The notes under the pieces: model-generated | Told to the model about the DNA's origin: nothing | Databases searched by the model: none | What the model saw: only the letters and a program-made list of their open reading frames with translations | From: Escherichia coli | Lineage (GTDB): Bacteria > Pseudomonadota > Gammaproteobacteria > Enterobacterales > Enterobacteriaceae | NCBI RefSeq assembly: GCF_011045215.1 | Contig: NZ_CP049201.1 | Length of the DNA stretch: 64,000 nt | Reading direction: 5' to 3' (one strand) | Position numbers and translations under genes: made by a program | In this document: piece by piece, positions 25,780 through 25,802 of the stretch | How the letters are laid out: every line of letters starts with the position of its first letter | Numbering within the stretch: position 1 is the first letter of the stretch

Positions 25780-25802
25780 ACTTTAGTTACAACATCCTTA
25801 AT
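25780..25802 (-). other. Ter (TerB-like) replication fork arrest site overlapping the tus promoter region
   Basis: Minus-strand reading contains the Ter core GTTGTAACTAAAG (ATTAAGGATGTTGTAACTAAAGT), about 10 bp upstream of the tus start codon. Confidence 0.6.

Follow-up and report, generated by a model that had tools for sequence, protein, structure and literature searches.

Is the Ter-like sequence just upstream of tus in this stretch of Escherichia coli DNA a replication fork barrier, an operator of tus, or both? We analyzed the whole stretch, 64,000 nucleotides long and hereafter called the window, in which the sequence occupies positions 25780..25802. Both TerB and its two functions have been textbook material since 1991. 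Our results indicate, with a probability of about 0.96, that 25780..25802 is the E. coli chromosomal terminator TerB, a polar fork barrier and at the same time the tus operator, both by way of Tus binding. A TerB site at the tus promoter is ordinary and previously described, and is thus already known; the allele found in the window, its polarity, and its placement on the chromosome are described below.

The Ter site and the tus gene

The site lies in the interval between rstB and tus, with the following features:

24840..25769, minus strand: tus, the ORF for the 309-aa DNA replication terminus site-binding protein, with its ATG at 25769..25767
25770..25779, minus strand: 10-nt spacer GGTTAATATT from Ter position 23 to the tus ATG, identical in K-12 and strain OkiPb01695
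25780..25802, minus strand: TerB, the 23-bp Tus-binding site ATTAAGGATGTTGTAACTAAAGT, with position 1 at 25802 and position 23 at 25780
25845..27146, minus strand: rstB, a sensor histidine kinase gene, the upstream neighbor, co-directional with tus

On the plus strand, 25780..25802 reads actttagttacaacatccttaat, the reverse complement of which is ATTAAGGATGTTGTAACTAAAGT; the earlier note gave no strand, and the conventional Ter orientation is that of the minus strand, shared with tus. Compared with K-12 TerB (AATAAGTATGTTGTAACTAAAGT), ATTAAGGATGTTGTAACTAAAGT had two mismatches, A2T and T7G, and shared 21 of the 23 bases. When three or fewer mismatches were allowed, the K-12 TerB query had a single match in the 64-kb window, on the minus strand, whereas 0 of 100 dinucleotide-preserving shuffles of the window contained a match. 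The uniqueness of the match and the lack of any match in the shuffles indicate that the TerB observation is real and far beyond chance. The core pattern GNRNGTTGTAACKA likewise had one zero-mismatch match in the window, at 25780..25802, where the Ter core (positions 8–18, with GTTGTAAC at its center) is intact. The Ter core has been defined as positions 6 and 8–18, with positions 1–5, 7, and 19–23 being variable (Goodall et al. 2021, PMC8347550, Fig. 3 legend); because both position 2 and position 7 are listed there as variable, the differences in the window fall outside the core. In the alignment with MG1655 and OkiPb01695, Ter positions 3–6 and 8–23, the 10-nt spacer, and the tus start were the same as in the window.

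A cognate Tus with intact DNA-binding and cytosine-pocket residues is encoded next to the site. The predicted protein was identical at 307 of 309 residues to the crystallized Tus chains of PDB entries 1ECR, 2EWJ, 2I05, and 2I06, the sole differences being I23A and E43K, and it matched Pfam family PF05472 (E = 7e-137). A longer GTG-initiated ORF reaching 25781 is a mechanical artefact, and the true tus start is the ATG at 25769, which agrees with the 10-bp gap from TerB to tus stated in PMC8707476. At the other end of the gene, the convergent 3′ ends of tus and fumC overlap by 4 nt (24840..24843), as in K-12.

The surroundings were those of K-12 TerB. The rstB gene stops 42 nt before Ter position 1, fumC lies convergently at the 3′ end of tus, and the annotated synteny is rstA–rstB–tus–fumC, as in K-12 MG1655. 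The site thus occupies the rstB–tus interval, 10 nt from tus, with a −10-like TATAAA overlapping Ter position 1. Matches to an 801-nt query spanning TerB were present in 5423 of the 5426 complete E. coli genomes; all those listed were annotated with rstB and tus. The earlier note had described a TerB-like Ter core about 10 bp upstream of tus, to be checked by alignment with the Ter consensus and TerB and by conservation of the base critical for lock formation. These points were borne out: a 23-bp site is present with a 10-nt spacer to the ATG, no invariant core position is mismatched, positions 2 and 7 alone differ, the G6/C(6) pair is present, and sequence together with synteny (rstB–Ter–tus–fumC) identifies the site as orthologous to K-12 TerB.

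A chance or decayed pseudo-Ter without Tus-dependent function, like terF, terH, and terJ, is hard to reconcile with a site whose core and G6 are intact, which lies at the position orthologous to TerB and outside any ORF, and which was not matched in any shuffle. Several of the ter sites annotated in K-12 are currently considered pseudo-Ter (PMC8707476), and the two mismatches to the K-12 reference TerB could be read in the same way, but positions 2 and 7, where they fall, are variable, and G7 is found in terC too. Moreover, 5423 of the 5426 complete E. coli genomes contained a full-length match to a 35-nt query consisting of Ter plus 6 nt on each side. We regard a pseudo-Ter as having hardly any chance of being correct, the sequence evidence effectively refuting it; no evidence contradicting the identification as TerB was found in this analysis.

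Lock base, polarity, and chromosomal placement

Ter position 6 determines whether Tus can lock onto its site, and one further feature is needed here:

25797, plus strand: C(6), the Tus–Ter lock cytosine, paired with G6 of the Ter strand, as read from the sequence

The G·C pair at position 6 is therefore present, with G6 on the minus strand and C on the plus strand. C(6) flips into a pocket of Tus to form the lock, the "mousetrap" (PMC4499146), and mutating the G·C(6) pair shifts duplex affinity by at most about fourfold, yet abolishes arrest (PMC4499146). Tus binding, lock formation, and fork arrest at TerB have been measured on the K-12 allele (PMC8707476, PMC4499146, PMC10331603), and occupancy of TerB by Tus has been reported by ChIP-seq (PMC8707476).

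The polarity of the site was compared with the direction of replication suggested by base composition. The non-permissive (fork-blocking) face of TerB is the 25802 end. The net GC skew of the plus strand was positive, and the cumulative skew climbed over most of the window with no sustained switch of sign. Because the skew is positive, the plus strand would be the leading strand for a fork that runs toward higher coordinates; the normal fork would thus move from low to high and reach Ter position 23, the permissive face, first. As judged by GC skew, TerB is permissive to the normal fork, the polarity of a fork trap, and the site is predicted to block forks arriving from the terminus side, that is, from high to low coordinates.

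At the molecular level, a fork moving from high to low coordinates would reach the position-1 end of TerB (25802) first, and its DnaB would track along the G6-bearing minus strand. The partner base, C(6) at 25797 of the plus strand, would then be freed, flip into the cytosine pocket of Tus, and lock the Tus–Ter complex. Conversely, the normal low-to-high fork would meet the permissive face and displace Tus. Monomeric Tus, made by the gene 10 nt downstream, would serve both roles of TerB.

The window is E. coli chromosome, reversed relative to K-12, and spans roughly from rsxC to DicF in a Qin-like prophage. A match to the DicF antisense sRNA (Rfam RF00039, 72.5 bits) was located at 63814..63865 on the minus strand, indicating that the window runs into a Qin-like defective prophage at its high-coordinate end. 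The K-12 coordinates of terB and terC are 1.68 Mb and 1.61 Mb, respectively, and clockwise forks in E. coli meet TerB as their second barrier. We found neither dif nor further credible Ter sites in the 64-kb window. Because dif and a skew switch are lacking, the window represents the outer fork trap rather than the terminus itself. The assignment to the replication terminus region made in the earlier note holds in the sense of the fork trap, whereas the point of termination is not inside the window, which contains no dif, skew switch, or other Ter site.

Other Ter-like sequences in the window were rejected. The GTTGTAAC octamer occurred four times versus 1.7 expected, a chance level, and the 23-mers around the three other occurrences (9495, 28658, and 51940) lack T18. 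The sequence at 28649..28671 on the plus strand (TATGTGAAAGTTGTAACCATTTT) has G6, but carries the core changes T9A, T18C, and A20T; it sits at the start of an inserted symporter gene and is in the opposite orientation to TerB. The sequence at 51931..51953 on the plus strand, also opposite to TerB, lacks both G6 and T18. It lies inside a minus-strand ORF (51272..53698) at a position that we take, from synteny, to be that of ynfE/ynfF.

The inserted gene belongs to a 1750-bp insertion at 27147..28896, which replaces 7 bp between rstA and rstB, normally separated by a 3-nt gap, and splits the rstAB operon:

27325..28668, minus strand: transporter of the sodium:dicarboxylate symporter family (Pfam SDF), 447 aa, the single gene of the insertion

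The symporter gene is co-directional with rstA, rstB, and tus. The insertion has a low GC content (about 0.46) and alters the C-terminus of RstA from ...AWE* to ...AWDSDNK*. Among the 5426 complete E. coli genomes, this insertion was found on the chromosome of one (NZ_OZ197100.1), and the same symporter gene was found on four E. coli plasmids. In the one plasmid examined, IncFII pBOKZ_020007, the gene was flanked by two copies of IS1; no IS1 or clear terminal repeats were found in the window.

The window also differed from the complete genomes elsewhere. For positions 1..25000, the best match among the 5426 complete E. coli genomes was 98.4% identical over 25 kb, and none reached at least 99%, whereas the 801-nt tus–rstB junction was 100% identical to that of strain OkiPb01695. 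The divergence of the first 25 kb and the identity at the junction suggest either a lineage absent from the complete genomes or a recombination mosaic.

The tus promoter and autoregulation

The following promoter elements were inferred from the sequence upstream of tus:

25802..25810, minus strand: predicted extended −10, TGcTATAAA, with TG at 25810..25809 and TATAAA at 25807..25802, the last A being Ter position 1
25825..25830, minus strand: −35-like TGGTCA, four of six consensus matches, 17 nt upstream of TATAAA

The promoter was read by eye and is supported by conservation. We aligned nine E. coli sequences, namely the window, K-12 MG1655, and seven genomes spread down the match ranking. 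Both TGCTATAA and TGGTCA were invariant in all nine, and the 17-nt spacer between the two elements varied in sequence while remaining constant in length. A consensus promoter and terminator scan of 25650..26000 reported no promoter; this scanner demands a T at −10 position 6. The assignments of the −10, the −35, and the start site are predictions, with the start of tus transcription placed at approximately Ter positions 7–8 (25796..25795).

Because Ter position 1 is the last base of the extended −10, bound Tus should cover this predicted start. On the 23-mer, Tus would reach from about −7 to about +16 and keep RNA polymerase out, and such occlusion would keep Tus at a low, self-limiting level. 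This layout fits the published autoregulation of tus: the tus promoter overlaps or contains terB, through which Tus regulates its own gene (PMC8347550, PMC8707476, PMC12809603), so that the autoregulation proposed in the earlier note is supported by these three papers. Passages in the same papers credit the repression of tus via TerB to Roecklein 1991 and Natarajan 1991; the published autoregulation, too, was measured on the K-12 allele.

A hairpin is present at 25808..25836 on the minus strand, between the rstB stop codon and the tus −10, in the promoter spacer (10-bp stem, −16.1 kcal/mol, z = −2.2). Although the hairpin is perfect in the window allele, two mismatches disrupt it in K-12, strain 135 has another sequence in its place, and it lacks a T-run; we therefore rejected it as an rstB terminator and consider it probably incidental rather than a conserved terminator. 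Transcription reading through from rstB would reach TerB at its non-permissive face and may also be blocked by bound Tus.

Natural variation and related systems

The site differs slightly among E. coli genomes. Records matching the 35-nt query were distributed as follows:

Identical to the window allele: 1301 of the 5487 records, including O157:H7 and HS
One mismatch to the window allele: 947 of 5487 records
Two differences from the window allele (K-12 type and others): 3233 of 5487 records

The allele with T2 and G7 (T2/G7) therefore occurs in roughly one in four complete E. coli genomes. In the nine-sequence alignment, Ter varied at positions 1, 2, and 7 only, apart from an indel of 1 nt within the A-run at positions 3–5 that keeps G6 in register. 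G6, Ter positions 8–23, and the 10-nt spacer were invariant, and the 47 nt upstream of Ter contained a dozen polymorphic columns. Goodall et al. (2021, 2023) reportedly catalogued how TerB varies at positions 2 and 7 between the phylogroups of E. coli. For terB, Table 2 of PMC10331603 lists "1-2 SNPs/23 bp" across phylogroups, which makes the T2/G7 allele a known kind of natural variation. A literature search for the exact 23-mer ATTAAGGATGTTGTAACTAAAGT found no paper containing it.

We assume from its sequence that the T2/G7 allele is equivalent in function to the K-12 allele. An effect is conceivable, because G7 adjoins the lock base and position 2 lies just after the −10: the allele may alter Tus affinity, lock kinetics, or promoter strength, giving a different autoregulatory set point for Tus. 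Position 7, however, is also G in terC, position 2 is variable among functional Ter sites, and we consider such an effect doubtful.

Among known systems, K-12 TerB (terB, τR, T2) is the closest, having the same locus, orientation, 10-nt spacer, G6, and TGGTCA-17-TGcTATAA arrangement as the window site and departing from it only at A2T and T7G. K-12 TerC (ATATAGGATGTTGTAACTAATAT) shares G7, its core GGATGTTGTAACTAA including this base, and its polarity class (it blocks clockwise forks) with the window TerB. In contrast, TerC is the innermost of the barriers that clockwise forks meet and their main arrest site; its locus, between yneE and uxaB, is beside dif rather than in the tus promoter, and its sequence differs from the window TerB at the outer positions 1–5 and 21–23. 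The RTP–Ter system of Bacillus subtilis is likewise a polar barrier on asymmetric sites, and rtp adjoins the innermost ter sites. RTP, however, is an unrelated dimeric winged-helix protein that uses other sites and no C(6) lock, and is analogous rather than homologous. In type I fork traps (Edwardsiella tarda Ter1, Cedecea, and Dickeya), a Ter site with C(6) by the tus ATG is both barrier and operator (PMC8707476, PMC10331603); this vicinal Ter is the innermost site in type I traps, whereas it is the second site in E. coli (type II).

The same arrangement was found in other genera. We scanned 298 Gb of contigs with the pattern TGTTGTAACTAAN{5,25}ATG, which was too loose and mostly gave chance matches in unrelated phyla. 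A tblastn search with Tus identified three loci with tus among the 120 pattern matches listed:

Citrobacter werkmanii: Tus 84% identical, Ter-to-ATG spacer 10 nt
Yersinia aldovae: Tus 55% identical, Ter-to-ATG spacer 20 nt
Photorhabdus caribbeanensis: Tus 51% identical, Ter-to-ATG spacer 10 nt

At all three loci the Ter site has G6, A8, and the required core, TATAA(A/T) abuts position 1, and the pattern-matched ATG is the tus start codon; Citrobacter also keeps TGGTCA-17-TATAAA. The Ter core and an ATG within 5–25 nt were preset by the pattern, and the independent observations are G6, position 8, TATAA, and the identity of the ATG as the tus start. This layout matches the vicinal Ter sites of Toft et al. 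2021 (PMC8707476).

G6 was invariant in every allele seen, that is, in the nine E. coli sequences and the three other genera. A site acting as an operator alone would not need G6, because the loss of the G·C(6) pair abolishes arrest while leaving affinity within about fourfold (PMC4499146). This argues against the view that TerB is here essentially the tus operator, with arrest being negligible and forks already stopped at terC. [quoted passage not shown] Nevertheless, wild-type K-12 pauses forks significantly at TerB, a strong lock former (PMC8707476, PMC10331603), and the orientation of TerB in the window is correct for a fork trap. We consider an operator without a role in arrest very unlikely, and retain the reading of TerB as both fork barrier and tus operator.

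If the T2/G7 allele did change the set point of Tus, lineages carrying it would differ in the stringency of their fork trap. The presence of TerB places the window in the outer fork trap, at about 1.65–1.71 Mb in K-12 terms, which adds little beyond annotation, and it also fixes the direction in which the normal fork passes through the window.
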